A stretch of 63,169 bases of DNA, filler included, from Thraustochytrium aureum (taxonomy: Eukaryota): assembly GCA_012862495.1 (NCBI GenBank). It is 9 parts of 4 records of this genome, joined end to end, with 100 filler letters (N's around TTAATTAATTAA, not from the genome) between each part and the next. Parts side by side here need not be neighbours in the genome. Positions count along the whole stretch, not along the records: positions 1 to 27,764 come from BLSG01000061.1; 8 more parts are not named here. One strand, given 5' to 3'. The notes under the pieces were generated by a model. It searched no databases and was not told the DNA's origin. It saw only the letters and a list, made by a program, of their open reading frames with translations. Positions 11,825-61,991 of this stretch are shown here, piece after piece; position 1 is the first letter of the stretch; the number at the start of each line of letters is the position of its first letter. Made by a program: the position numbers and the translations under genes.

Positions 11825-14800
11825 CTAGCTGTGGCTGGGCGTGTCTGCGGCCTCGTCGAGGCCCTCGAAGAGCGAGTCGATGCTGGCAGGGATCGGCTCG
11901 TTGGNNNNNNNNNNNNNNNNNNNNNNNNNNNNNNNNNNNNNNNNNNNNNNNNNNNNNNNNNNNNNNNNNNNNNNNNNNNNNNNNNNNNNNNNNNNNNNNN
12001 NNNNNNNNNNNNNNNNNNNNNNNNNNNNNNNNNNNNNNNNNNNNNNNNNNNNNNNNNNNNNNNNNNNNNNNNNNNNNNNNNNNNNNNNNNNNNNNNNNNN
12101 NNNNNNNNNCTCGTTGGCTATCTGAAACATGGCGGTGCGCTGGTAGCGGCGCAGAATGACGTGCAGCGAGGTGCGGTACAGCGCGTCGCTGTGCGTCTTG
12201 CGGAGGTGCTGGATGGCCTCCCGAAGGTCGCGGATCGAGTAGCCGGTGACGGCCAAGATGCGCGCCTTCACAATGGGGACCTCCTGGTACACGAGCGCCA
12301 GCACGAGGCAAGCCGCCGCGACGAGCGACGGCATCTTGCAGATGAACAAGTGCTCTTGCAACGACAGCTCGGCCAGATAGTGCGCGAGGACCCGCGCCTT
12401 GTCGCTGACCGGCATCCTCGGACATGGCTCAGTCCCGTCAGGCAGCACCGAGCAGAGCTCGTCCTCGCTCTGGTCGTAGCTCAGGCGCACCACGAAGACG
12501 TTGAGAAAGTCGATCACAGTAGGGACGCAGATGTGAAAGTCGAGCTTGTTGAGCACTTCCTCCTCAAGCCGCAGCAAGTCCTCGGGCTTGTAAACCCTGT
12601 CCGCACAGACGACAAGGTCTTCGACCCCGATGTACGACACGTCCTCGCACTTTGAGGCGATGTGAAGGCAGGTCGCCCCGAGCAGCTGGAAGCGGCGGCG
12701 CTCCACCCTCTCAAGTGCCAGGTATCGGTCCGTGTAGTTGACGGCCATGAAGACCGACCGAACCGACATCTCAAACACGTCGATCACCTCAACGAGCCAG
12801 TCCACGAGCATGGAACGGTGCATCGGAAGCAGGTCGGGCTGGAAAGCGGGAGTCGCGCCCGCCCCGCGAGGAGGCCGGCTGCTCTCGCTTGTGGATGTCA
12901 ACAGCGACCTGAGGGAGTCCATCGCGCCTGGCGCAGTTGGTCTTGGAGGCGGCCCCGGCAGAGCCGTCGCTGACGCCCCTGCTTGAAGGCTGTGCGAGAC
13001 GGTCGTGGTCGTGGTCACGATTGGCGCGGATGTGTCGCGCCAATCAGTGGCCCCTGCACTTGACCCCTCGACCATGTAGTCTTGCAAAGGGTACATGCTG
13101 TCCTCGAGGCACTTGAGGTAGTGGTAGTACCGCACCAAGTACGCCGGGTCGTCGAGCCCCGGCCGGCTCCGCTCGTTCATGTTGGCAATCTCGTGCAGCC
13201 GCGTCGAGTACTTCCAGCACGACGCAGAAGCGCCCGGCCCGGTCGGGTCAAGCCAGCTCACCGTGTCGAGGTTGAGCCTTCCGGCGACGTGCCCCGCCTC
13301 CGGAAAGTCGCGGTCCGGCAGCTGCGCGTCCGCGCGGATCGGCCCAAACTCGAGCAAATTGGCCTCCGCGTCTCTGGCGCGGTGGGCGTCCACGCCAGGC
13401 GGCACTGCGACCATGGCCAGGTTGGGCGAAAACTCGGCTTTCACGGCTGGCCACGGTCCGCGCGACTCGCCCGGGCAAGGTTGCGGAGGACTTGCTAGCG
13501 ACGGCCCGGGCGACGAGGCCGCCCTGACGGCATCAAAGTACGGGTGCTTGAGCGCCGCCTCTGCGGTTATGCGGCGGTCCGGGTTGATGTTGAGCATCTT
13601 GGCCATCAGGTCCAAGCCCTGCTTGTCCAAGGTGGGCACGTGCACGCGCAGCGGGCGGCGCGACCAGTTAGGAAAGTCAAAGTGATAGTTCGGGAGCTGC
13701 TTGAACTGGCTCCACGTCTCCTCGTCGGGGGTTCCCAGCTTGAGGAAGATCTGGAAGAGCTGGTCGATCTCGCAAATGCCAGGAAACAGGGGCTTGCCGA
13801 GGATCATCTCCGCGAACACGCAGCCGACGGACCAAACGTCGACGGCGGCAAAGTATTGCCCTCCCATCAAAACCTCCGGCGAGCGGTACCAGAGCGTAAC
13901 CACCTCGGTGGTGTAGTTTCTCAAAGGGATCGAAGTGGACCGCACTAGGGCAAAGTCAGAGATGCGGATGCTCCCGTGCTCGGCGCAGGCCAAGAGCTTT
14001 TCGTATACGTCTGCGCTCACAGGACCGCCGGCGTCCGGGTCGGGGGAGGCTGCAGCGACGTCCACGACAGCAACGGCCTCGGCGCCGGCAACCGCCGCCG
14101 CGCTCGCGCCGTGGCGAGGCTGAGCGGCTCGCGCCCGGCTCGCGCGCGTCTCTCGAGATTCTGAGCCCTCGACATGCGTCGCAGAAGGCTGCCCAGCGGC
14201 CGGACGCGCGGGCGCGCCGGCTGCGGTTTCGTCCCGGTGACCGATGCCGCGCACCACGGGGGGCTCGGCAGGCTCGGGGGTTGCGACTGCGCGCGAGGCA
14301 ACGTTGCTCACGGCACGACGCAGCCGCGGTGCCACGGGCACAGGGCGGCCATCGCCGTCAACGCTGACGTCCATTCCGAGAAGTGCAGGGAGCTTGGCGC
14401 GCTCTTCCCGAGCCTCGACGCAGCGATGCGGCGAGTGCACGAACGCCGGCATGTCGATGAGGAGGTGCTTGGGCTTGAGGTTGCGGTGCAGCACGCCGCG
14501 TTGGTGGCAGAACGCGACGCCCTGAAGGATCTGGAACAGAAAGCGTTTGATGAGGGACGGCGGGAGCGGTAGGCCGCCGTTGGCGTCGTTGTTTGGGTTG
14601 ATGAGGTCGAAGAGCGACTTGTCCATGTACTTGAAGAAAAGGTAGAGCTTGTTCTCGTGGAGCGAGATGCGCTCGACAGTGGCGATGTTGGGGTGCCGCA
14701 AGCCCTGCAAGAACGCGAGCTCGCGGAGCATGTAGTAGGGCACGCCCTCGCCTTTGGGATAGACGCGCGCCTTCTTCATGGCGAACAGCCGCCCGGAGCG

Positions 14801-15552
14801 GCGGTGGAACACCTTGTAGCACATGCCCTCGGTGCCTTGGTTTTTCAAGCCCAGCGACTTGAATGCAAACCGGTTGATGTCTCCATTGCGGTAAAACGTG
14901 GGCACCTTGTCCCACAACTCGCGCGACTTGCACATGCGGTGCCAGGCGCGGTTCACCGCCCACGGCCCCTGCATAAAGTCTTCGCTATTGATCAAGAAAG
15001 AGAAGATCAACATCTTGCACTCGTCCAGCAGCATCGAAAAGTGCGTCACGCTCCGTGTGACCTCGTCGTCACTCAGCCGGAACCGGCAGGGCATCGGCGC
15101 GAGCGGCTTGCCGCCGTCCTCGCACAGCTTGCGTTTCGTACCGAGCGGGCTCGAGAAGCTCGCTGCGACCACGCGCGCGGGTTTGGGCGGGCCTACTTGA
15201 AGCGGGAGGTTTGTGGGAGAGGCGGAACCGTCAGTGGCCNNNNNNNNNNNNNNNNNNNNNNNNNNNNNNNNNNNNNNNNNNNNNNNNNNNNNNNNNNNNN
15301 NNNNNNNNNNNNNNNNNNNNNNNNNNNNNNNNNNNNNNNNNNNNNNNNNNNNNNNNNNNNNNNNNNNNNNNNNNNNNNNNCAGTGGCCTTGGCCTCTCCG
15401 CCGTCGCTGCGCTCGCGCCCGCCGTCGCCAAACAGCCCGCCGGACCATCGCCCACTCGGCCCAGCGCGGCCGCCCTCGGCGGACCCGACAGAGTGCGTCT
15501 CGTCGTGGTCTACGAGGATGGCGCTGTCGCCGGCCGTTGCCGCGGTTTCCAT
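11825..15552 (-). CDS. F-box + CDK-like pseudokinase + cyclin fusion protein (two N gaps near the ends)
   Basis: One ungapped frame from 15239 to 12110 holds an F-box (FSMLLDECKMLIFSFL...AVNRAWHRMCKSRELW), a CDK domain (FAMKK, EGVPYYMLRE, HRNLKPKH, DFALVR, YTTEVVTLWYRSPEVL, GKPLFPGICEIDQLFQIF, RITAEAALKHPYF) and a cyclin box (HRSMLVDWLVEV, AVNYTDRYL, FQLLGATCLHIASKCED, LAHYLAELSL, PSLVAAACL). Start METAAT at 15552 is inferred across a gap. Confidence 0.9.
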
Positions 15553-16732
15553 GTTCCGGGCTGATTGATGCCCTGGCCCAATCGTCCACGCACGAAGCCG
15601 TCGTACACGGGTACGAGCACGAGCTGGCAGACCCCAGCAGTTCAAAATGCTCGGGTTGGCGGACCGACCAGTAGACCCGCCGGCGACCTTCTTTGAGCAA
15701 CTAGAGTACGTACGACCACGCCCGTCCCACTGTCGCGCGCCAGCCCCGCCGGCCACCAGAGCCCTCAGGGCCCGATCGCGCGGCCGCCGCACACCCGACG
15801 CTCCCGCCGCTGTCAGCGCGAGCGGGACCCGTCTCAGGGAGTGGAGTTGGAGTCGAAGTTGGGGCTAAAGAGTGAAGGGGGCAAGGGGGACGACTCGCGC
15901 TCCGCCCTGGCGCGGCAAACCCACACAGCAACGCAGCCCTGCTCGCAAGCGCCACCGGCGACAAACCAGAGCAGCGCGAGCGCGGTACCGGGCCACTCGG
16001 ACGCAAAGCGCAAGCGCGCTCGAGCAGCTCGCCCCCGATCGATGCGCGCGAAGCTGGTCTGCTCGCTCGCCCCAAGCAGAGCGCTTTTTTTTGCTAACCT
16101 CTTTTAGCCTCGACGTATCCTCTTGGGACCGTTTCTCCTCGACGCATCCTCTACGCGTGCGGTTGCTCGTGTCAAAATACTGGTTTTCAGTACTCAGCGA
16201 CATCGCTTTGATCATTACCTTGACTTTCAGTATTGCTGAAACGCAAAGGCCTGCCTTTCCGGCAGATCTGTGTATTGAATACCAGTACTGATGAAAACCA
16301 GTAGAGAACAAAGGGATCCCATTCCAGCGCTCTGCATCCATGTCTTGAATCTCAGGTCTCGAGCGCGGCTACTGCGCGCATGAGTACTGAAACTCAAGAT
16401 GAGAAGCTAAGTATTGAGTATTGAATATCATTATCCAGGTAGTATTTGGAGCGCGGATGCTTCAATGCTTAGCCTTATGTACGTATTGAATTATGGTAGT
16501 GTGTGCTGGACAGCTTGGAAGCGCAGCAGACGCAAGAGCGGCAGAGCAGCCGGGGGGGCAGCGGACGAGCCAGCGGCTGCGGGGCAGGGCGGAATCGCGC
16601 GCGTTTGCTGTCGCTCTCTGCTGCGCTGGGCGCGCTTTCGTTCCGGTTGGAGGATCGGTCGTTTGCGGATTTTCTGGTCTGGTCCGGTCGCTGATTTCGC
16701 CGCTGCCGACGCCGGCGCCGGCCTCCCTCCCT

Positions 16733-27764: not shown

Positions 27765-27808
27765 NNNNNNNNNNNNNNNNNNNNNNNNNNNNNNNNNNNN
27801 NNNNNNNN

Positions 27809-27820
27809 TTAATTAATTAA
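27809..27820. other. Artificial contig linker TTAATTAATTAA flanked by 44 N each side (also 34615-34626, 39815-39826, 45136-45147, 51169-51180, 52614-52625, 56340-56351, 61936-61947)
   Basis: The identical 100-nt cassette with stop codons in all six frames occurs eight times. Confidence 0.97.
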
Positions 27821-27864
27821 NNNNNNNNNNNNNNNNNNNNNNNNNNNNNNNNNNNNNNNNNNNN

Positions 27865-30427: not shown

Positions 30428-33189
30428 CTATTTTTGGGTTGTCCGTGCACGAGAAGTAGCTGGGTACAATGCGAGCAAACCCTCGCGGTCGGCCTCTTCG
30501 TCATACGGGAAAATACGGGCGAGAATCGCAGCCGCGACTTGTGCCAGGCAGCGCTTGAGCACCGGGTCTTCGTCAAGCTGCTTGACGAGTTCCTCGACAG
30601 ACTTCCTTTCGCCGTCGGCACTCTCCAAGTCGGCCTTGATAAGGGGATACCAAAGATTGTTCGCCACACCCATCATCCCCATCCACTCATCTTTGTCTGT
30701 CATCTCGTCGACCAGCACGAGGGGCAGTAGGTCCCCCACCAACTTGAACTGTTCAGCATAATAATACTCCAGTCTGCAGACGCTGTTTTGGTCCTCATCT
30801 CGCACCTTGTCGGCGTAGTCGGTGGTGAGGCACACGCAAAAGGTCTGGGACTGATCTATGCCGCTCGTCAACGATTGCTTCGCGTTGTCTCGAACCTCAC
30901 ATTCGTCAACCCAACACTTGATGCCGTAGTCCGAGTCAAGCTTTTGCGCAATTGCCAGAACCCAGTTGTGCGTGCGTTTCTCTTTGCCCCAACTGTGCGA
31001 CATGAACGCGTCGAACCTAGTGCGCAGCCGTGTCGAGAGCCGGAGCACTTCGTCACAGAACAATTTTGTTGCGCGGCTGTCCGCGAGCTCGCTCATGTCC
31101 CGCTGCAGCATCATTTCCATATTGGTCTTTGCCTTGTCTGTCTGGTGCAGCGGCAACGAATCAAACGCGAGGTTGTTGCTGCCCAGGCGCAGGAGAATAA
31201 GTTTAACTTGCTCGCTGGCGACTTCCAGAACTTCGTTGGGGGCTTTGTCCTTGGCCTTGAGCTGCTGCTCGATTTGTCTGCGGATAAACTTCTGGACGGC
31301 GTACGGTTCGCGTTTAAGCAGTCGCTTGTTCACGTCGGCTGCACGAACTGTAGCTCGCATCGAAAACTGAGGGACCAACTCCACGATGCTTGCCTTTCGA
31401 GTGATGAGTCGAGGAAGGCCTTTTGCCGTGTCGTACACGTCGGCCTCCTGCTCTCGGCAAGCGCCAAGTGCCTGGAGGTCGCTCAAGAACGCTCCTCTAC
31501 TCCCCTCGTTANNNNNNNNNNNNNNNNNNNNNNNNNNNNNNNNNNNNNNNNNNNNNNNNNNNNNNNNNNNNNNNNNNNNNNNNNNNNNNNNNNNNNNNNN
31601 NNNNNNNNNNNNNNNNNNNNNNNNNNNNNNNNNNNNNNNNNNNNNNNNNNNNNNNNNNNNNNNNNNNNNNNNNNNNNNNNNNNNNNNNNNNNNNNNNNNN
31701 NNNNNNNNNNNNNNNNNNNNNNNNNNNNNNNNNNNNNNNNNNNNNNNNNNNNNNNNNNNNNNNNNNNNNNNNNNNNNNNNNNNNNNNNNNNNNNNNNNNN
31801 NNNNNNNNNNNNNNNNNNNNNNNNNNNNNNNNNNNNNNNNNNNNNNNNNNNNNNNNNNNNNNNNNNNNNNNNNNNNNNNNNNNNNNNNNNNNNNNNNNNN
31901 NNNNNNNNNNNNNNNNNNNNNNNNNNNNNNNNNNNNNNNNNNNNNNNNNNNNNNNNNNNNNNNNNNNNNNNNNNNNNNNNNNNNNNNNNNNNNNNNNNNN
32001 NNNNNNNNNNNNNNNNNNNNNNNNNNNNNNNNNNNNNNNNNNNNNNNNNNNNNNNNNNNNNNNNNNNNNNNNNNNNNNNNNNNNNNNNNNNNNNNNNNNN
32101 NNNNNNNNNNNNNNNNNNNNNNNNNNNNNNNNNNNNNNNNNNNNNNNNNNNNNNNNNNNNNNNNNNNNNNNNNNNNNNNNNNNNNNNNNNNNNNNNNNNN
32201 NNNNNNNNNNNNNNNNNNNNCAGCGCATGCGTCATGTAGTACTCCTCCGAGCCGCTAAAGTCCCACAACGAGATCACGCCGCCCTCCGAGCTGCCCTTGA
32301 CGTCAAACTCGATGCTGTGGATGTCCACGCTAATGGTCGCCCGCGAGTCGTCGCTCGCTGGCGTCGGGTCGGCCTGGAGCCCTTTCGCCTTCAGGGCGCG
32401 CGTCAAGCTCGTCTTGCCAACGCCCGCGGGGCCCACAACAAGCACCTTGACCTGGAGCACCGTATCGGGGCTGAAGAGGATGCCCTCCAAGAAAGCAAAG
32501 GTGTTCTTTGCAGAGGTCGAGGTATCTCTCTCGAGGACTTCTCGTGGAGCTAGCGGCACGGGGAGCCCGCAGTCGATGGCGAGCTTGGCGAAACGCCGGG
32601 TCGCCACTGCGCGCGCGTCATTCCTGTCGATGCTAGGGCCTTCGACATTACACTCGACGCGGACAAGTGCCGCTAGAGCGACTTCTCCTTGGATACCGAT
32701 GCTGCTGCCCTCAAGGCTGTTGTGGTTGTGATTGTTCGATCATGATGAAGGTGGTCACGCGAGTTGGTCAGCCACAACCCAAAAAATGCACAACTACGCG
32801 GCCGCGCAAGCAGGCACTGCCCTCTTTGCAAACAAGGATGAGGCAGGCATGAGCTCACGGCCATCCGTGCCACGACTTACTTCAGAGAAGTCACTGTCGA
32901 GTTGCTCTTGAGCGCCTTGGCCAGCGCGCCAGCACCTACATCGCCGATTTCGTTGCCACCGAGACTGTTGTTGTTGTTGTTGTTGTTGTGGTTCGATGAT
33001 GAAGGTGGTCGCGCGAGTCTGTCAGCCACCACCGAGAGACACTGACCGCGCAAGCCGGCTCTGTCTGAATTCATGCAAGCACGAGGCTGGTGCGAGCGCA
33101 CCAAGCAGCCAGCCAGAAACTCACTCGATCGACGACTCTCCGCGCTTCACCGCGGCCACTGCCTCCTCTGTGTTCATGCATTTAACCAT
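30428..33189 (-). CDS. ROCO protein: RI-type LRR + Roc GTPase + COR region (mostly in a gap) + C-terminal TIR; exons 33189-33125, 32964-32881, 32716-30428
   Basis: Spliced N-terminus MVKCMNTEEAVAAVKRGESSIDLGGNEIGDVGAGALAKALKSNSTVTSLNLEGSSIG; Roc KVLVVGPAGVGKTSL and LWDFSGSEEYYMTH; TIR FDAFMSHSWG...CWVDE...GIDQSQTFCVCLTTDY...CRLEYYYA...LLPLVL. COR is assumed from family architecture. Confidence 0.85.
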
Positions 33190-34570: not shown

Positions 34571-34834
34571 NNNNNNNNNNNNNNNNNNNNNNNNNNNNNN
34601 NNNNNNNNNNNNNNTTAATTAATTAANNNNNNNNNNNNNNNNNNNNNNNNNNNNNNNNNNNNNNNNNNNNCCGACGGACGCGGCGCAACAGCCGAGGCGC
34701 GCGCAACAGGGCCATAATCAATCCATCTTGAAAGAAGAATACTTATAGGCCTACCACGAGACCTCGACTATTTAGTAGGATTTGACAGGAAAGCCGAGCG
34801 AGCGAGCTGCAACAACGCACGACGCACCCACAAC

Positions 34835-36580
34835 TCAGAGCGGCGAGAAGCCCTGCACGAGCGAGTTGACCATAGGCGTAATGAGCAAGTCGGCCACGAA
34901 GAAGAAGAACACCCCGAAGAAAATGGAGATGGGCAGCGCCGGCAGCGCCTTGTGGTACACGGCGAGGAGGAAGAGGGTCGAAGCAAGACCAGCCACGACC
35001 ACGACGTAGACGGCGAAAAAGGTTGACAGGCCGTTGAGCGCGGCGCGGCCGACGAGCACCGAGTAGAAAACAAAGTCGCCGAGGCCGAGCTTGATCGAGT
35101 CGCGGTCGCCAAACGAAGGGCCTTGAGCGAACTCGGCCACCGCCCCCGGCGGGCTCGGCATGATGGCGCCGGCATGCGTTCCGCGCTCGTGCTCGGCCCT
35201 GTAGCCGGTCTCGAGCTCGTCGACGCTGTCGTCGTCAGAGGCGTTCGACGGCGCAAACGGGCGCGAAGACGGGGGCGCCGCCATGAACACAAACATTCCG
35301 AGTGGCCCCGCCATGGCGGCCCCACCAGAGTAGTTGCCGCTGCGGCGCGCCGATTCGCGAGACGAGCTGTCCGAGGCGGCGGAAACCGAGCCGTTTGAGC
35401 CCATTTGTTGCTCGTTCTGGTCCTGGCGGTAGCCATTGTGGTGGTGGTTGGTGATGTTGGCCTCGTACAAGAGGCCAGGCATGCCCACATCCTTGTCCTG
35501 TGAAATCTCAATCAGACACTTGAGCGGCCCCACGGGGGTGAGCACGGCGCAAAGGTCGTACAGGGCCAGCATGATGAGCAGCGCCCAGCTCGTCCAGGCG
35601 GGGAGAAACGCGACGAGCAGCCAGGCCATGACCACGCTGACTCCGACGAGGTAGGCTTGGTTGACGATGACGGGCATGCCTTTTTGGTAAAAGATGGCAA
35701 TGAGCCCGCATATCGCGTAGTTCCAGAAAAAGAAGTAGAAACTGACGGCGTCGAAGGGGACGTTGTAGACTTTGAGGCCCTCTGAGACCATGNNNNNNNN
35801 NNNNNNNNNNNNNNNNNNNNNNNNNNNNNNNNNNNNNNNNNNNNNNNNNNNNNNNNNNNNNNNNNNNNNNNNNNNNNNNNNNNNNNNNNNNNNNNNNNNN
35901 NNNNNNNNNNCGGTAACGAGCCACGTGATGAGCACGCGGATCATGTTGAGGTAAACTGTGCGACGCAAGGGGTGTCAGAAGCGGGGCCCAAGCAAAAGCA
36001 ACAGTAGGTCGAGCGGGCAGCAGCAGCAGCAGCAGCAGCAAAACAACGAGCAAGCGGCCCAGTCAAGCAGGGGTGCAAGCAGGGAAAACGTACAGAGCCC
36101 GACCATCACAAATGTTGCGCCAGTGATGATGCCCACGATGAGGAGCGCGTTGGCCACCGCATAGCCGGCCTTGCTCACGTCCGAGGTAGCGGTGTTTTCG
36201 TCAAAGATCTGCGGCAACGAGGCGATGCCGCCCTGGCCGTTCCCGTTCGAGCCTGTGTTGATGTACACAACCGCGAGCGCGGCAAGGATGACCGTCACGG
36301 ATACGGGCCAGAACACGGCCAAGAACGAGTTGAACGAGTACAGGAGCTCCTTGAACGTCTCGTCCTTCTCGTTCGCCAGGTAGGCCTCGTACTGCTTGCG
36401 TTCCGCCTCGGTCATCGGACGTTGCTGGGGTGGCCCGGCGGGCAGCGGAGGGCCCGGCGGCGGCGCCCATGCTGCGCTTGCGCCCTGGCCGTCAGAGTCC
36501 GAAGAAACGGACGCTTGGCGCTCCTCCTCCTGCAGCTGGCGCTCCAGTTCGAGTTCTATGTCCTCGGCAGAGGTAGCCAT
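34835..36580 (-). CDS. PSEN: Presenilin (gamma-secretase catalytic subunit); intron 35956-36093
   Basis: YD in ALYDLCAVLTPVGPL, IKLGLGDFVFYS and ALPALPISI; intron with GTACGT donor, CTGAC branch and CAG acceptor. Confidence 0.95.
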
Positions 36581-39461: not shown

Positions 39462-39870
39462 TTGGGGCCGATTGGGGACCGACTCGGACTCTTTTTCGGA
39501 GGCGAGACCGGGCACAGGGCGGGCCGAAGAAACAATCTCGTTCCAACGGTAGCTGGACAGCTGCGCGAGCGGCAGGCGAGCCACGCTGCTGACTGGCCGC
39601 GCTGGCCGGCCCGAGCGCTGTCATCTCTTTAGAGAGATTGCAAATGCTTGTGTTTGCGCCTCACGGCCATACGCATAGATAACCAAAGCGGACTTTTGAT
39701 TCTCGTAGAGGGAAAGTGGAGTGAATGCGCGACGGGTGTTGGGCAGCGAAGGGGCCTAATCGCGAAAAGCNNNNNNNNNNNNNNNNNNNNNNNNNNNNNN
39801 NNNNNNNNNNNNNNTTAATTAATTAANNNNNNNNNNNNNNNNNNNNNNNNNNNNNNNNNNNNNNNNNNNN

Positions 39871-42800
39871 CCGCCGCTGAAAGAGCGGTGCGCCAGTACC
39901 CAGAGCACTCGTCCTGGCGTAAGCCTAGCAGCGGCAGCACGTCCAAGACCTCGCGCCGCTCCAGCCAGTCAAAGTGCTCGTCCTCGCTCGGCACGAGCAC
40001 GGAGAGCTCGTCCTCAAGGGCGTACGCGACCCAGCGCAAAGCCGCAACCAGACCTGCGCCAACTGCCTTCGCGAGCGCCGCGCGCGTGCTGGCAGAGCCC
40101 ACGTCCACCCGGGGCTTTTGCCGAAACCCGGCCGTCTCGTCGATGAGCCGCAGCCGCACCAGCTGCGCCATGACGTCGTTCACGCTGCGGTCGTTCTTAC
40201 CGACCGCCCGCTCCACGGCAAGGAGGAGCTCGGGCTCGTCCGCGCCGCTCGCGAACGCGGTTTCGAACGCCTCGATGACGACCGCGTTGTCAGCCACCGT
40301 CCAGACCGGCCCCGCTGGCACCGCCCCCCGACTTGCGGCCTTTTTCGACTTTTTCTTGATCACGCCAGTGAGCCGCACGTTGTCCAAGTCAGCCTCCTCC
40401 TCGCTCAGGTCGCTGCTAGACGCGCGTTCGCGGCGACGGTCTGCTTCCTCGCGCGAGCGCTTCTTCCTGGCGCCGCCTGGGCTCTCAGAGCCGCTATCGC
40501 TGTCGCCGTCCCGGTCTCTGCGCTCCCGGCGGCGCTCTGCGCGCTCCAGGTCGAGCGCCTCTTGCCGCTCCTCACGAAGCCGCTCCCGCTTGGCGGCTGC
40601 GTCCTCGTACCCGTTCATGAGCAGCGTGTTCTCCGACTTGTTGCGCCACACAAGCACCTCCACATAGGTCAGCGGATGCGCGACCGCGTGCGTGAAAAAA
40701 CGCCCGCAGCACCTCCTCCAGGAGCGCAAACAGCTGTGGCCGCCGCTCGCGAGGATAGGCGCCCATCGCTCGCGCAAACGTGGCAAACAGCGAGATGTGC
40801 CACAGCGAGGCCGGCTGCGCCTCGTGGAAGCGCTCCAAGAACCGCCGCACGACGCCTTCTTGCAACACCTGCAGAGCGGCCTCGGTCACAAACACCGGCA
40901 CACGGTCCGGGTCGAGGAGAAGGCACAGGTTGCGCACGGCGGTGTTACTCGTGTACGGGCGCACGACAGCCTCTACCTCGATCGCCTTCTCGCGCCGCGC
41001 TCGCTCCATCGTTTGTTGGTGCTCGGCTGCATCCTCCTCCTCCTCCTCCCCGCCTTGCATGTCGATGTCGGCCTGGCCCTGCGCCGCCTCCTCGTTCTCG
41101 GCCTCCTCCTGGAGGAACGCCTCGAGGTCGCTCAAGCCCTTGGCCCGCATAGCGGCGGTGATCTGCGCCCATCGGTGGTGCATCATCGAAGCGGTGCGCG
41201 AGGCGTCAAAGACCTGGCTGAGCGTGGGGTCTTTCAGCGCTCGGCGAAACGCTTTGGCGGTCGCTCCGCCGTGCGCCTTGACCGCCTCAGCCAGCGCGTT
41301 GGTCTCCTCCGCGGTCCACCGCTTGCCAGTGCGCCGGTCGACGCCACTGGCGGGCTTGTTTCGGGAAGCGGCGCTTGTCCCGCGGCCGTTGCGCACCTTG
41401 GCGCGAACGACAACGTTGTCGACGGCCATGGCTCCCGCGATCTCGACGAGCGCGTCGCCCATGACCGCGAGGTCCGCAAGGAAGAACCACGTGCCACCGG
41501 TCTGGTCCCAGCTCCGGACGAGACGCGCCACGAGGTCGAGCTCCTCGATGTTGTAAAACACTCTGTTGCGGAGCGACTCGACGAGGGTGCGCACGGGCGC
41601 TGACTCGGTCGCCTGCATCGTGCGCAGGAGGAGGACCATCTCCTTGAGAGCGCGCGCCGCCACCTCGAGCTCGCGCGTCTTCTTGTCGTCCTCGTACAGC
41701 TGGCAGCTCTTGAGCACGTAGTGAAACGTCCACACGTCCATCGTCTTCATGATCGGCGACTTGTCCCAGCGGTGCGAGCGCGTCTCACCGGCTTTCTCGA
41801 CACGGGTCCGCTCAAACCCTGTGCAAAGCCCGACGAGCCACTGGAACTGAAAGTGGTCCGCGGGCACGAGCCGGAGGTCCTCGCGCGAAAAGTCGCGCTT
41901 CAGCGCACTCAACAGCGGCTTGTAGCACCGCCGCACAAGCTCGAGGCACAGGTCGTGCCGCATCTTGCGGAGGCCGCGCCCCACGGGGTGGTCGCTCCGC
42001 CCAGACCCGAGCAGCATCTCGGTCTGCTGCCGCTGCTGCAGGTCAATCAGGTCCTCCTTGCGCTGCCGTCCTCCAGCACGCTTTCCGGTTCCGCCGCGGG
42101 GCCCCGCCAGGTTGGCTGCCACCGAGCTTGAATTTGCGCTCGTGGCGGNNNNNNNNNNNNNNNNNNNNNNNNNNNNNNNNNNNNNNNNNNNNNNNNNNNN
42201 NNNNNNNNNNNNNNNNNNNNNNNNNNNNNNNNNNNNNNNNNNNNCCCCGAGCGTGAGGACTCCAGCAAAGCGCGAGTGCCGCGAAGACATGCCGCGGCTC
42301 GCGTGCACGCGCTTGGCGCGGCTCTTAAGCATGAGGCTGGCAAGCGCGTCTTCACCCGCCGCGCTCGCCGTTTCAAGCGCGCGAACCACGCTCGCCCTGT
42401 TGCTTGTCCCACTTGGCGCGCCGGTGGGAACTGGCGCTCCCGGGTGCGAGCGCGCCGGCCTGGCACGGGCGTGCTCCTGGGATGCATCTGCGAGAAACAG
42501 GTCGTCAACCTGCGCGCCGCGAAAGATCTGGTAAAAGATCTCGAGCAGAATGAGGTTCCACTCTTGGTTGCCCGCGGTGCCGACAAACTCGCCCATGAAC
42601 ACGATCAGCTCGAGCACGCACTCGCGGCCGAGCATGATCAGAAAGTCTTCGTGAAGGTGCGTGTAGTGCGCGTTTTTCGTGGACCCCGACCCGGTCCCTG
42701 GCTTCGCGTCTGGGATCGCCAGCAGGTTGCGCAAGAGCCACAGGACGAGCTCCACGAGGAGCTTGTCCTCGTCGCGCCGTGCTGACCCCGTGGCAGCCAG

Positions 42801-43299
42801 AGGTCGCTCGAGCAAGTGCATGAAGGCGTGCAGCGCGCCCTCGTTGAGGAAGGCTGATTTGAACGCACGCAAATGCTCGAGGCGCTTGGCCCCGTTCTTT
42901 GCGTCTGCGGCCCCGAGGGGCATCGTGAGCTGGACCACTACCTTGGTCACCTCGGTCAGAAGCTTCTCGTCTTGCGCCCCGTACGACACCGCGAGCGGGA
43001 TCAGATAGTTTCGCACGATTGCGAGATCGCCGAAAAGGATGATGCTGTCGTTGCGCTCCTCGCGCGTGTCTGCGTTGATCTCCTTGCGGATGCGCTTGAG
43101 CGACTTGAGGCACTTGGACTCATTCTTCAAAAACGTGCTCCCGCTCCCTGCGCCCTTGGAGCTACCAGCGCGCCAAGACCGGGCCGCCCAGTTCGCTGTT
43201 AGCCTCGTCCGTCCCGCTGCGGCGCTGGCAGTCCCCTTGCCCAACTTACTACAGCGTGCCCAAGTCGGAGCAGAGGTTGAAGCAGTACGAGTCGTCCAT
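39871..43299 (-). CDS. TIMELESS: Timeless/Tof1/Swi1 fork-protection protein; intron 43162-43249; frameshift near 40697; 3' end cut by contig end
   Basis: Spliced start MDDSYCFNLCSDLGTLY...KCLKSLKRIRKEI; KVVVQLTMP, LVELVLWLLRNLLAIPD, WNLILLEIF, SRHSRFAG and RVFYNIE are Timeless-type motifs. Confidence 0.88.
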
Positions 43300-43840
43300 C
43301 GCGGCGCTCGCCGCCTTGCCGCGCGCCCGCTCCGCCGCACGTCCGCTTCGCTGTCACACTCGATACGCTCTACGCCGTGCGGCTCCTGGCTTCGCTGCGG
43401 CCGCACTCGCGCCCTCGCACGCCGTGGCAGCGCGTCAGTCAATCGATCGATCGATCGATCGATCGGTGTCTGGTGCCTGCCAAGTCCCTGCTCGACTTTC
43501 TTTTTTCAAAATCTTTAGAGGGCCGGCCGGCTTGTGGCGTGGGCAGGACGACCCTCTATTGCCGATCCCGAGCTGGCCTCGCGCTCGACGGGCTTTGGCC
43601 TTGGCCTGGCCTGGCCTGCAGCTTGTCTGATGATTGGGCTGCAGGGCCGCGGCGACGATGAAAGTGGATCGGGCGCCTGGCGGACTGGCGGGTCGATCAG
43701 GGCTTCCAGGAATCGGGCGCCTGGCGGATTGGTGGGTTGATGAGGACTTGCAGGACTGATGCAATCGTGCAGGCCCGCTCGCTGGTCGAATTGGACCGTC
43801 CAGCTCATGACGAGCTGTCCTGCTGGGTTGTCTCTTTTTC

Positions 43841-45091: not shown

Positions 45092-46947
45092 NNNNNNNNN
45101 NNNNNNNNNNNNNNNNNNNNNNNNNNNNNNNNNNNTTAATTAATTAANNNNNNNNNNNNNNNNNNNNNNNNNNNNNNNNNNNNNNNNNNNNGCTTCTTCT
45201 GTCGGTGAGCTGCATACGTGCTCGTAGCGACCGCAGTTGCGGATGGCCGGCCAAGGCGGGCGAGGGAGGTGTCGCCAGAGCGCTGCGTCACTTTTCGACC
45301 GCGACAACGAGCCAACCAGGCACAGAGGGCCGGCCCTCCTTGACTCAGCTCTTGGACCGAAAACGGCACTGAACGAACTGGCCTAGCCTATCCTTGATTG
45401 TGCACCGGCAGCTCGCAGCTCGGCCTCCAGCAAGCGCGTCGGGATCGTAGAGCGCTGAAACAGCTCGTTGGATTCCGTATCCGCGGGCGAGCAGCATAGA
45501 GTTGCCGCGTTGCGCAGCCCTGAAGAGCCTCCCGCGTGTTTAGCGTTGTGTTTGTGCAGTCGGTCCGTGAGCAGGCACGGCGGGCGGGCGGGCCAGTCGA
45601 GAACGATGAGCAAATCGGTTGTCGCCTCAACGCCGAGGTCCTTCACACCCAAGTTGACCCAATATGCACACATTCGACTTTCGTCAATCAACAAGAAGCA
45701 GAACAGCCGGGGAGCGGTGGAACGCAGCGTCCCGTGCACAAGAGCGACGAAAAGTGGACCTCCGACCGAGCATAATTGATCGACGCCGAGCGCGGCGATG
45801 ACCCCCAAGGCCGCAGGCGGGACCTGCTCGCCTGTCCCGTTTGGCCGGGCAGCAACTGGTCGAACGAGATCGAAGCCGCCACTGCCGCCGCCGCAGCCAA
45901 CGGAGCGAGCGCCTTCGCCTGCGCTGTGGAGGGACGCAGGTACTCGCGGTCGATGGACGGACGGATGGATGGAAGGAGGACTGGACATCCTCGCGCTCTT
46001 TCTGCTGAGCAGCGCAGCGCCTCCGATCTCGGGCGGCCCAATCGATCGATCGCAGCTCGACGGCACCACGAAGAGCGTCTGCGAGGGGTGTGCATCCGGA
46101 GATCCGAGTGACCGTCCAGCGAAACCCGCCGGCGCGCCTGCAGCCCACAATTACCCCGAGGGGCGCTCCTCCACCGTCCGTAGTTACTCCGAGTGGACAA
46201 ATCCATGTGTCCACGTTTTACCGAGAGGCGCGTCGCGCACACGATTGCTCCGCCCTCACAAAAGACAATACCAGTGGCGGGTGCGGGAATCTATGTGAGG
46301 AATGGCCGTTACAGGCGGTGCGAGTGAGAGGCGGAGCCACAGAGAGGGANNNNNNNNNNNNNNNNNNNNNNNNNNNNNNNNNNNNNNNNNNNNNNNNNNN
46401 NNNNNNNNNNNNNNNNNNNNNNNNNNNNNNNNNNNNNNNNNNNNNNNNNNNNNNNNNNNNNNNNNNNNNNNNNNNNNNNNNNNNNNNNNNNNNNNNNNNN
46501 NNNNNNNNNNNNNNNNNNNNNNNNNNNNNNNNNNNNNNNNNNNNNNNNNNNNNNNNNNNNNNNNNNNNNNNNNNNNNNNNNNNNNNNNNNNNNNNNNNNN
46601 NNNNNNNNNNNNNNNNNNNNNNNNNNNNNNNNNNNNNNNNNNNNNNNNNNNNNNNNNNNNNNNNNNNNNNNNNNNNNNNNNNNNNNNNNNNNNNNNNNNN
46701 NNNNNNNNNNNNNNNNNNNNNNNNNNNNNNNNNNNNNNNNNNNNNNNNNNNNNNNNNNNNNNNNNNNNNNNNNNNNNNNNNNNNNNNNNNNNNNNNNNNN
46801 NNNNNNNNNNNNNNNNNNNNNNNNNNNNNNNNNNNNNNNNNNNNNNNNNNNNNNNNNNNNNNNNNNNNNNNNNNNNNNNNNNNNNNNNNNNNNNNNNNNN
46901 NNNNNNNNNNNNNNNNNNNNNNNNNNNNNNNNNNNNNNNNNNNNNNN

Positions 46948-51124: not shown

Positions 51125-51399
51125 NNNNNNNNNNNNNNNNNNNNNNNNNNNNNNNNNNNNNNNNNNNNTTAATTAATTAANNNNNNNNNNNNNNNNNNNN
51201 NNNNNNNNNNNNNNNNNNNNNNNNGTGCCTGGGCGCCAACGTGATTGGTCCGCGAGCGACCTTCAACGAGCTTGCCACGGACGTCTCGCGACGGGTTGGG
51301 CGAGCTGCCACCCGCGGATGTTGCGCGATTTTCAAAAGTTTGTAAACAATGAGGTGAACGGGAAGGAGCGCTTTGGGGGCAGGAGCTCGTACTCCGCCG

Positions 51400-52569: not shown

Positions 52570-52669
52570 NNNNNNNNNNNNNNNNNNNNNNNNNNNNNNN
52601 NNNNNNNNNNNNNTTAATTAATTAANNNNNNNNNNNNNNNNNNNNNNNNNNNNNNNNNNNNNNNNNNNN

Positions 52670-56295: not shown

Positions 56296-56395
56296 NNNNN
56301 NNNNNNNNNNNNNNNNNNNNNNNNNNNNNNNNNNNNNNNTTAATTAATTAANNNNNNNNNNNNNNNNNNNNNNNNNNNNNNNNNNNNNNNNNNNN

Positions 56396-61891: not shown

Positions 61892-61991
61892 NNNNNNNNN
61901 NNNNNNNNNNNNNNNNNNNNNNNNNNNNNNNNNNNTTAATTAATTAANNNNNNNNNNNNNNNNNNNNNNNNNNNNNNNNNNNNNNNNNNNN

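Follow-up and report, generated by a model that had tools for sequence, protein, structure and literature searches.

A predicted-dead CDK joined to an F-box and a cyclin A-like domain in Thraustochytrium aureum, a candidate SCF substrate receptor

Described relatives and comparable systems

Animal cyclin F (FBXO1) combines an N-terminal F-box with a cyclin domain carrying an RxL-type groove and serves as receptor of the SCF (Skp1-Cullin-F-box) ubiquitin ligase. In Tribbles proteins, a dead kinase fold of the CAMK type is the substrate adaptor for an E3 ligase, with COP1 recruited via a short tail. We analysed a gene of Thraustochytrium aureum that codes for an F-box, a cyclin-dependent kinase (CDK) domain and a cyclin domain in one chain; it lies on the minus strand of a 63,169-nt stretch of assembly GCA_012862495.1, called the window here. 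The protein shares with cyclin F the F-box and a cyclin with an RxL-type groove, however cyclin F lacks a kinase, which in the T. aureum protein sits between the two. With Tribbles it shares the idea of a pseudokinase adaptor, but Tribbles has neither cyclin nor F-box. SCF-Skp2 presents p27 together with Cks1 and CDK2-cyclin A (PMC10318019). There, too, a CDK-bound protein is delivered to SCF by the joint action of an F-box protein with a CDK and cyclin A, and a Cks-type surface is kept in T. aureum; in the Skp2 system the chains are separate, the CDK is active and Skp2 has a leucine-rich repeat substrate domain, which the T. aureum protein lacks.

The closest described proteins are four CDKs of Phytophthora infestans with C-terminal cyclin domains, confirmed by reverse transcription PCR (RT-PCR) (Judelson and Ah-Fong 2010, PMC3019232; all statements on this work refer to its main text and two supplements). 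These CDKs were considered probably inactive due to the same Asp-to-Asn change in subdomain VIb that we found in T. aureum, a role in stability was suggested for the cyclin part, and relatives were reported from other oomycetes, ciliates and Theileria, not from two diatoms. The sequences in the supplement (PITG_10829, 10830, 10831 and 21617) contain the family motifs, with only the cyclin domains annotated; the term F-box does not occur in these texts and no function is given. Domain order and the motifs GTEG, PYYM-RE, HRNLKP-H and DFAL-R are common to the P. infestans and T. aureum proteins, the latter being set apart by its extended disordered inserts and by an F-box that is weaker. For Stentor, two CDK-cyclin genes were described, one as a possible pseudokinase scaffold (Reiff and Marshall, bioRxiv 10.1101/168187, in the accessible part), while the accessible parts of PMC2872877 and PMC2705460 contain nothing on a kinase-cyclin fusion. 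Database names already carry the F-box, e.g., "cyclin-dependent kinase with F-box domain, putative" for P. infestans XP_002901649.1 as well as records of Achlya and Thraustotheca, and many family members bear the UniRef label "Cyclin-F". A paper on the F-box or the function of the family was not found in the open-access literature, subscription papers being outside the search. The T. aureum gene thus belongs to a family known since 2010, and its fusion as such is nothing new. The original prediction, made from the sequence of the window, had supposed that homologues might exist unstudied in other stramenopiles; oomycete and ochrophyte relatives do exist, but fusion, transcript and Asp-to-Asn change had been published. 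What the present analysis adds is a combined reading not found in that literature: we consider it probable, at roughly 60 %, that the family-wide F-box, the predicted-dead CDK and the protein's own cyclin A-like domain together form an SCF substrate receptor.

Gene structure, pseudokinase and family

One minus-strand frame at 15238-12110 encodes 1043 amino acids (P0001) without stop codons; no N was present between 15239 and 12110. Thus, the single frame free of gaps and frameshifts that had been predicted was seen, with domain coordinates correct to within a few codons. Pfam assigned Pkinase (E 8.5e-51, two stretches), Cyclin_N (2.8e-32) and Cyclin_C (9.8e-13), and the domain order is F-box, CDK1/2-type kinase, cyclin A-like domain. 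N gaps flank the frame at 15240-15380 and 11905-12109, each with an 8-nt overlap of its sides. Of six public runs found, the contigs of four (X1-X4) were compared with the gene; X1-X3 are RNA only by guess, and the true metatranscriptome X4 covered 249 nt. The lower gap was bridged by contigs of X1, X2 and X3, the upper by contigs of X1 and X2. As these contigs join straight across both gaps, the gene spans from an ATG at 15552 to a stop at 11825 and codes for 1121 amino acids, more than the extent of 12110-15045 proposed earlier, where the frame is indeed open. One public contig (12273-14105) joins the kinase C-lobe with the cyclin, another (14257-15583) the start, F-box and N-lobe. No intron-like joint was seen in the public contigs. 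Among the contigs compared, none spanned the entire gene, and none of those listed covered 14106-14256, a hole that proves nothing. The gene begins with a low-complexity arm (15050-15552, including the upper N gap; residues 1-60 of P0001 were predicted with low confidence, a predicted local distance difference test (pLDDT) below 50) and ends, past the lower gap, with a short acidic tail and the stop codon (11825-11896).

The kinase part has CDK3, CDK2 and CDK1 as best solved relatives. Its first half, from N-lobe to catalytic loop (14453-14863), contains the motifs GTEG, AMK, PYYMLRE and HRNLKPKH. Compared with CDK2, catalytic Asp127 is replaced by Asn (HRD to HRN, codon 14482), Gln131-Asn132 by Lys-His (His codon 14467), DFG by DFA (13951), Tyr15 by Glu within a Thr-Glu pair (14830) and PSTAIRE by PYYMLRE; the first glycine of the glycine loop is changed as well. 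Retained are the ATP-binding Lys, the helix C Glu, the Asp of the DF motif, the three arginines for phospho-Thr160 and the T-loop Thr. Between catalytic loop and DFA lies a lineage-specific, mostly disordered insert (13985-14452) of about 155-166 residues; its median length in 63 relatives is 17 residues, and in the family it varies between 12 and 166. The second half (13532-13984) comprises DFA, the T-loop with the Thr160 equivalent (13912) and the C-lobe with a Cks-type surface. The original prediction had called the CDK1/2-like domain complete; in the functional sense it is not, its catalytic residues being those of a predicted-dead kinase, and it is split by the insert.

For the family alignment, 62 relatives were picked for spread from 120 listed homologues and aligned with P0001. 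HRN, His258, DFA and the T-loop Thr443 were present in all 63 rows, Glu137 (at the Tyr15 position), Lys155 (the VAIK Lys) and Glu173 in 62. Among the 120 homologues, 90 had HRN, most of them with a cyclin, 25 were ordinary HRD kinases and five were family models without the loop. As a control, a short-length search yielded 116 new proteins: 107 were ordinary CDKs, all with HRD and QN, and the other nine were family fragments. The invariance of these exchanges in the family, against HRD and QN in all control CDKs, identifies the T. aureum protein by sequence as a conserved, predicted-dead pseudokinase.

Named members come from thraustochytrids, oomycetes and brown, yellow-green and golden algae. 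Mucochytrium (58-66 % identity) and Hondaea (54-58 %), with two segments each, are the closest named relatives; P. infestans XP_002901649.1 shares 45-63 % over three segments. When 1.84 billion representatives were searched with a profile, further divergent F-box-HRN-cyclin proteins were added, nearly all without names, along with a separate set of kinase-cyclin fusions that retain HRD and lack an F-box (16 of 256). A quick, unrooted tree of the kinase, made from 77 selected rows, placed the 38 family rows together on the same side of a branch (SH-aLRT 97) and separated them from the 16 other fusions and the 23 CDKs. This one-sided branch and the shared signature motifs argue for common descent with the P. 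infestans kinase-cyclin proteins. No ciliate or apicomplexan name was among the 20 divergent representatives looked up. Homologues labelled Durusdinium and Batrachochytrium may be contaminants of those assemblies.

F-box, cyclin and the proposed receptor

The F-box (14903-15049, residues 64-112 of P0001) is modelled as three helices. Pfam F-box-like matched with E 0.02 in the full scan and with E 0.00065 when scanned alone. The alignment of the family shows the F-box pattern L-P, I-F-S-F-L, V-S/C-K-R-W and L-W. In a scan of 30 relatives, with the top five families displayed per protein, 14 reached the cut-off, including the closest relative P0002 with 27 bits, ten had a weak match at the same place and six had none shown, among them the close thraustochytrid relatives P0004, P0005 and P0006. 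The F-box motif is thus present at the family level, and the T. aureum copy is a sub-threshold match at the homologous place. Among 256 proteins, a profile built from the family, which favours it by construction, detected the F-box in 97 of the 122 with HRN, in none of the 107 with HRD and in 11 of the 27 whose loop was not callable. By sequence, the F-box is family-wide and, within the set examined, occurs only alongside the dead kinase. Between the F-box Trp and the glycine loop, 47 of 61 proteins had a spacing of exactly 26 residues, a constancy not shared by the kinase insert and the kinase-cyclin linker (24-180 residues), which vary widely. The fixed spacing suggests that geometry matters, as it would for the presentation of a substrate. 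When residues 58-124 were co-folded with a stand-in Skp1, assigned by Pfam and taken from metagenome locus L005, the score was 0.81, and the best of three controls gave 0.03; as the pair is of a textbook kind and the partner a substitute, this expresses likeness rather than binding. The runs agreed in at least 81 % of the contacts with a partner pLDDT of at least 65; the mark for the pair score had been attained by 51 of the 78 solved and by 2 of the 108 mismatched pairs (for eukaryotes, 71 of 105 and 2 of 126).

A disordered linker (13148-13531) leads to the cyclin, which begins with an N-terminal helix of the cyclin A type (13073-13147), earlier than the start near 12830 given originally; the two folds predicted there were both found. 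The helix is followed by a disordered insert (12845-13072), the first fold (12524-12844) with an RxL-type groove (HRSMLVDW, Gln 851) and a CDK-binding face (ASKCEDVSY, EEEVL), and the second fold (12110-12523). Judged by pairwise scores with solved cyclins, the domain is closest to A2 (90 bits) and D1 (78), ahead of cyclin F (71), B1 (58) and E1 (53); in this and in the kept CDK-binding face it differs from cyclin F. The AlphaFold2 model, calculated with the 63-row alignment, had a predicted TM-score (pTM) of 0.76 and a mean pLDDT of 74, with 300 of 1043 residues below 50. VIA-align superimposed residues 698-1043 on cyclin A2 176-424 (Z 31.8, root mean square deviation (rmsd) 1.5, 246 aligned) and residues 123-570 on CDK3 (Z 30.0, rmsd 2.0, 285 aligned). 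All 43 Foldseek matches displayed for the whole model were CDK2 or CDK3 chains of activator-bound complexes; such whole-model searches returned kinases and cyclins, the F-box therefore being outside their reach. A pTM of 0.76 is hard to reach without mutual placement of the domains, thus the model is consistent with a kinase and cyclin packed as in cyclin-bound CDK2, the check proposed in the original prediction. Weighted conservation, at positions chosen by us from known structures, was 0.99 for the dead active site, 0.94 for the T-loop and P+1 loop, 0.88 for the helix C face, 0.86 for the Cks-type surface and 0.82 for the CDK face of the cyclin, compared to 0.62-0.65 when the two halves of the kinase and the first cyclin fold are taken as whole domains. 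Family-specific changes in helix C (PYYMLRE) were matched by changes in the facing cyclin loop (KCEDVSY), which is what a dedicated pair would be expected to show.

The idea of an SCF receptor gains support from the family-wide F-box, the predicted Skp1 binding, the conserved CDK-cyclin interface and the mostly conserved RxL groove. These observations agree with the SCF adaptor with a tethered CDK-cyclin unit proposed originally, where the pseudokinase nature had been missed. The F-box would bind Skp1 and thereby connect to Cul1-Rbx1, as in known SCF complexes. The dead CDK-cyclin could act as substrate trap: RxL-bearing substrates, inhibitors or regulators that dock on CDK-cyclin A would bind to the groove and the dead active site, perhaps aided by Cks. 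Bound proteins would escape phosphorylation and release and would then be ubiquitinated. One chain would compress the animal unit of Skp2 and CDK2-cyclin A that presents p27. A more specific version is rather doubtful: the dead active site may have been remodelled to recognise CDK phospho-sites, yielding a phosphodegron receptor like Cdc4/Fbw7 from the kinase-cyclin pair that writes the mark. Loss of the acidic catalytic Asp and the invariant Lys257 and His258 beside the intact P+1 loop might then form a product trap, and this could be an ancient stramenopile way of timing cell-cycle proteolysis. If the SCF receptor is real, a large lineage with crop pathogens, brown algae and thraustochytrids runs cell-cycle proteolysis via a dead CDK-cyclin A receptor, a design not found described in the open-access literature searched. 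The curiosity of 2010 without a pathway would become a concrete, testable hypothesis, and the labels "active CDK" and "cyclin F" would be corrected.

Several observations weigh against the SCF receptor. With 19.9 bits, the F-box of P0001 stays under the Pfam cut-off of 24.3 bits, the bias of the family-built profile has been mentioned, and no other domain is as poorly conserved as the F-box (0.38 overall, 0.57 in the core). The Skp1 partner came from a metagenome contig, and such a textbook pair may pass by likeness. The packing of kinase and cyclin is read from the pTM, not from an interface. The RxL groove has a conservation of 0.64, hardly above the 0.62 of the whole first cyclin fold. Met210 of cyclin A is a His in the T. 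aureum groove, the rest of which is intact, also in the main group. Several divergent members have lost the Trp or Gln of the groove, with the dead active site kept (P0041, P0047, P0051, P0064, P0072, P0089 and P0090), which suggests different substrates or none. Substrates, Cul1 binding and ubiquitination are proposals from sequence and model.

That conservation is far stronger in the pseudo-active site, in the T-loop and on the Cks-type surface than in the F-box would also suit a decoy or scaffold: the dead CDK-cyclin may soak up Cks, CDK-activating kinase, Wee1 or inhibitors, with an F-box that mainly turns over the protein itself. Two P. infestans gene models start in the middle of the F-box, and roles in stability (PMC3019232) and as pseudokinase scaffold (bioRxiv 10.1101/168187) had been suggested. 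We regard a decoy as unlikely, since the spacing of 26 residues is fixed in most proteins and the F-box is retained in distant lineages. A weak or unusual active kinase, writing its own degron on a substrate before ubiquitination, is less probable still. The retained residues for ATP binding and T-loop phosphorylation would permit it, and slight activity persists in some HRN kinases, e.g., HER3; but the catalytic Asp, the metal-binding Asn, the Gly of DFG and the first Gly of the glycine loop have all been exchanged, and a Glu stands at Tyr15.

Equally improbable is that Skp1 is bound in a complex other than SCF, or that the F-box decays in this lineage and the protein is merely a cyclin-like regulator. 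Complexes that join an F-box protein to Skp1 alone are known from yeast, the F-box is sub-threshold in T. aureum and close thraustochytrids, and the usual F-box Pro is a Leu in the T. aureum subgroup; against this, the F-box of P0002 passes the cut-off and that of P0001 passes the Skp1 prediction. The gappy draft window and the lack of a lone contig over the whole gene could point to an artefact of assembly or gene calling. This is most improbable: the frame is free of N, contigs bridge start, F-box and kinase as well as kinase and cyclin, most of the listed homologues have the same dead loop, usually with a cyclin, and transcripts were confirmed by RT-PCR in P. infestans (PMC3019232). Returning to the SCF receptor, the life stages of P. 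infestans offer a weak hint at its timing. PITG_10830, with an intact F-box, had values of 0.37 in hyphae, 1.33 in sporangia and 1.34 in zoospores, as might be expected if it acted as a brake on division; PITG_10829, whose model starts mid F-box, disagrees with the reverse pattern (1.75, 0.72 and 0.56).

Other kinase-cyclin fusions and neighbouring genes

Giant-virus contigs and nameless records likewise code for kinase and cyclin in one chain, but with an intact HRD and without HRN or the family F-box. Eighty viral loci contained 79 kinase frames, ten of them with a cyclin; HRN and the family F-box were each absent from all 79. The giant-virus fusion is probably independent of the F-box family. 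In IMG/VR, CDK-cyclin fusions in which HRD is intact and an F-box is missing were located at L119:2563-5397, L123:2938-4623, L133:2644-4248, L137:2590-4134, L138:2959-4395, L139:2590-4125 and L142:2908-4386. Several of the contigs with fusions are very large, one of 1.47 Mb carrying three copies. L135 and L136 have the opposite order, with the cyclin before the kinase. Ten metagenome proteins (P0180, P0194, P0201, P0202, P0204, P0217, P0225, P0203, P0231 and P0255) combine an apparently active CDK with a cyclin in either order and fall outside the family in the kinase tree; P0202 had no relative in the viral contigs.

The window contains eight spacers of 44 N, 12 bases and 44 N (27765-27864, 34571-34670, 39771-39870, 45092-45191, 51125-51224, 52570-52669, 56296-56395 and 61892-61991). 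These spacers join parts, therefore gene neighbours across them are unreliable. No functional link of the neighbouring genes in the window to the fusion was seen. All four neighbours noted lie on the minus strand: a 603-aa frame (284-2095) with thioredoxin, ubiquitin-like and PUB domains, likely a p97 cofactor; a TIR_2 domain (E 6e-10) in a frame crossing an N gap (30428-32254); a presenilin-family protein (34835-35944); and a protein with a Timeless domain (40572-43505).

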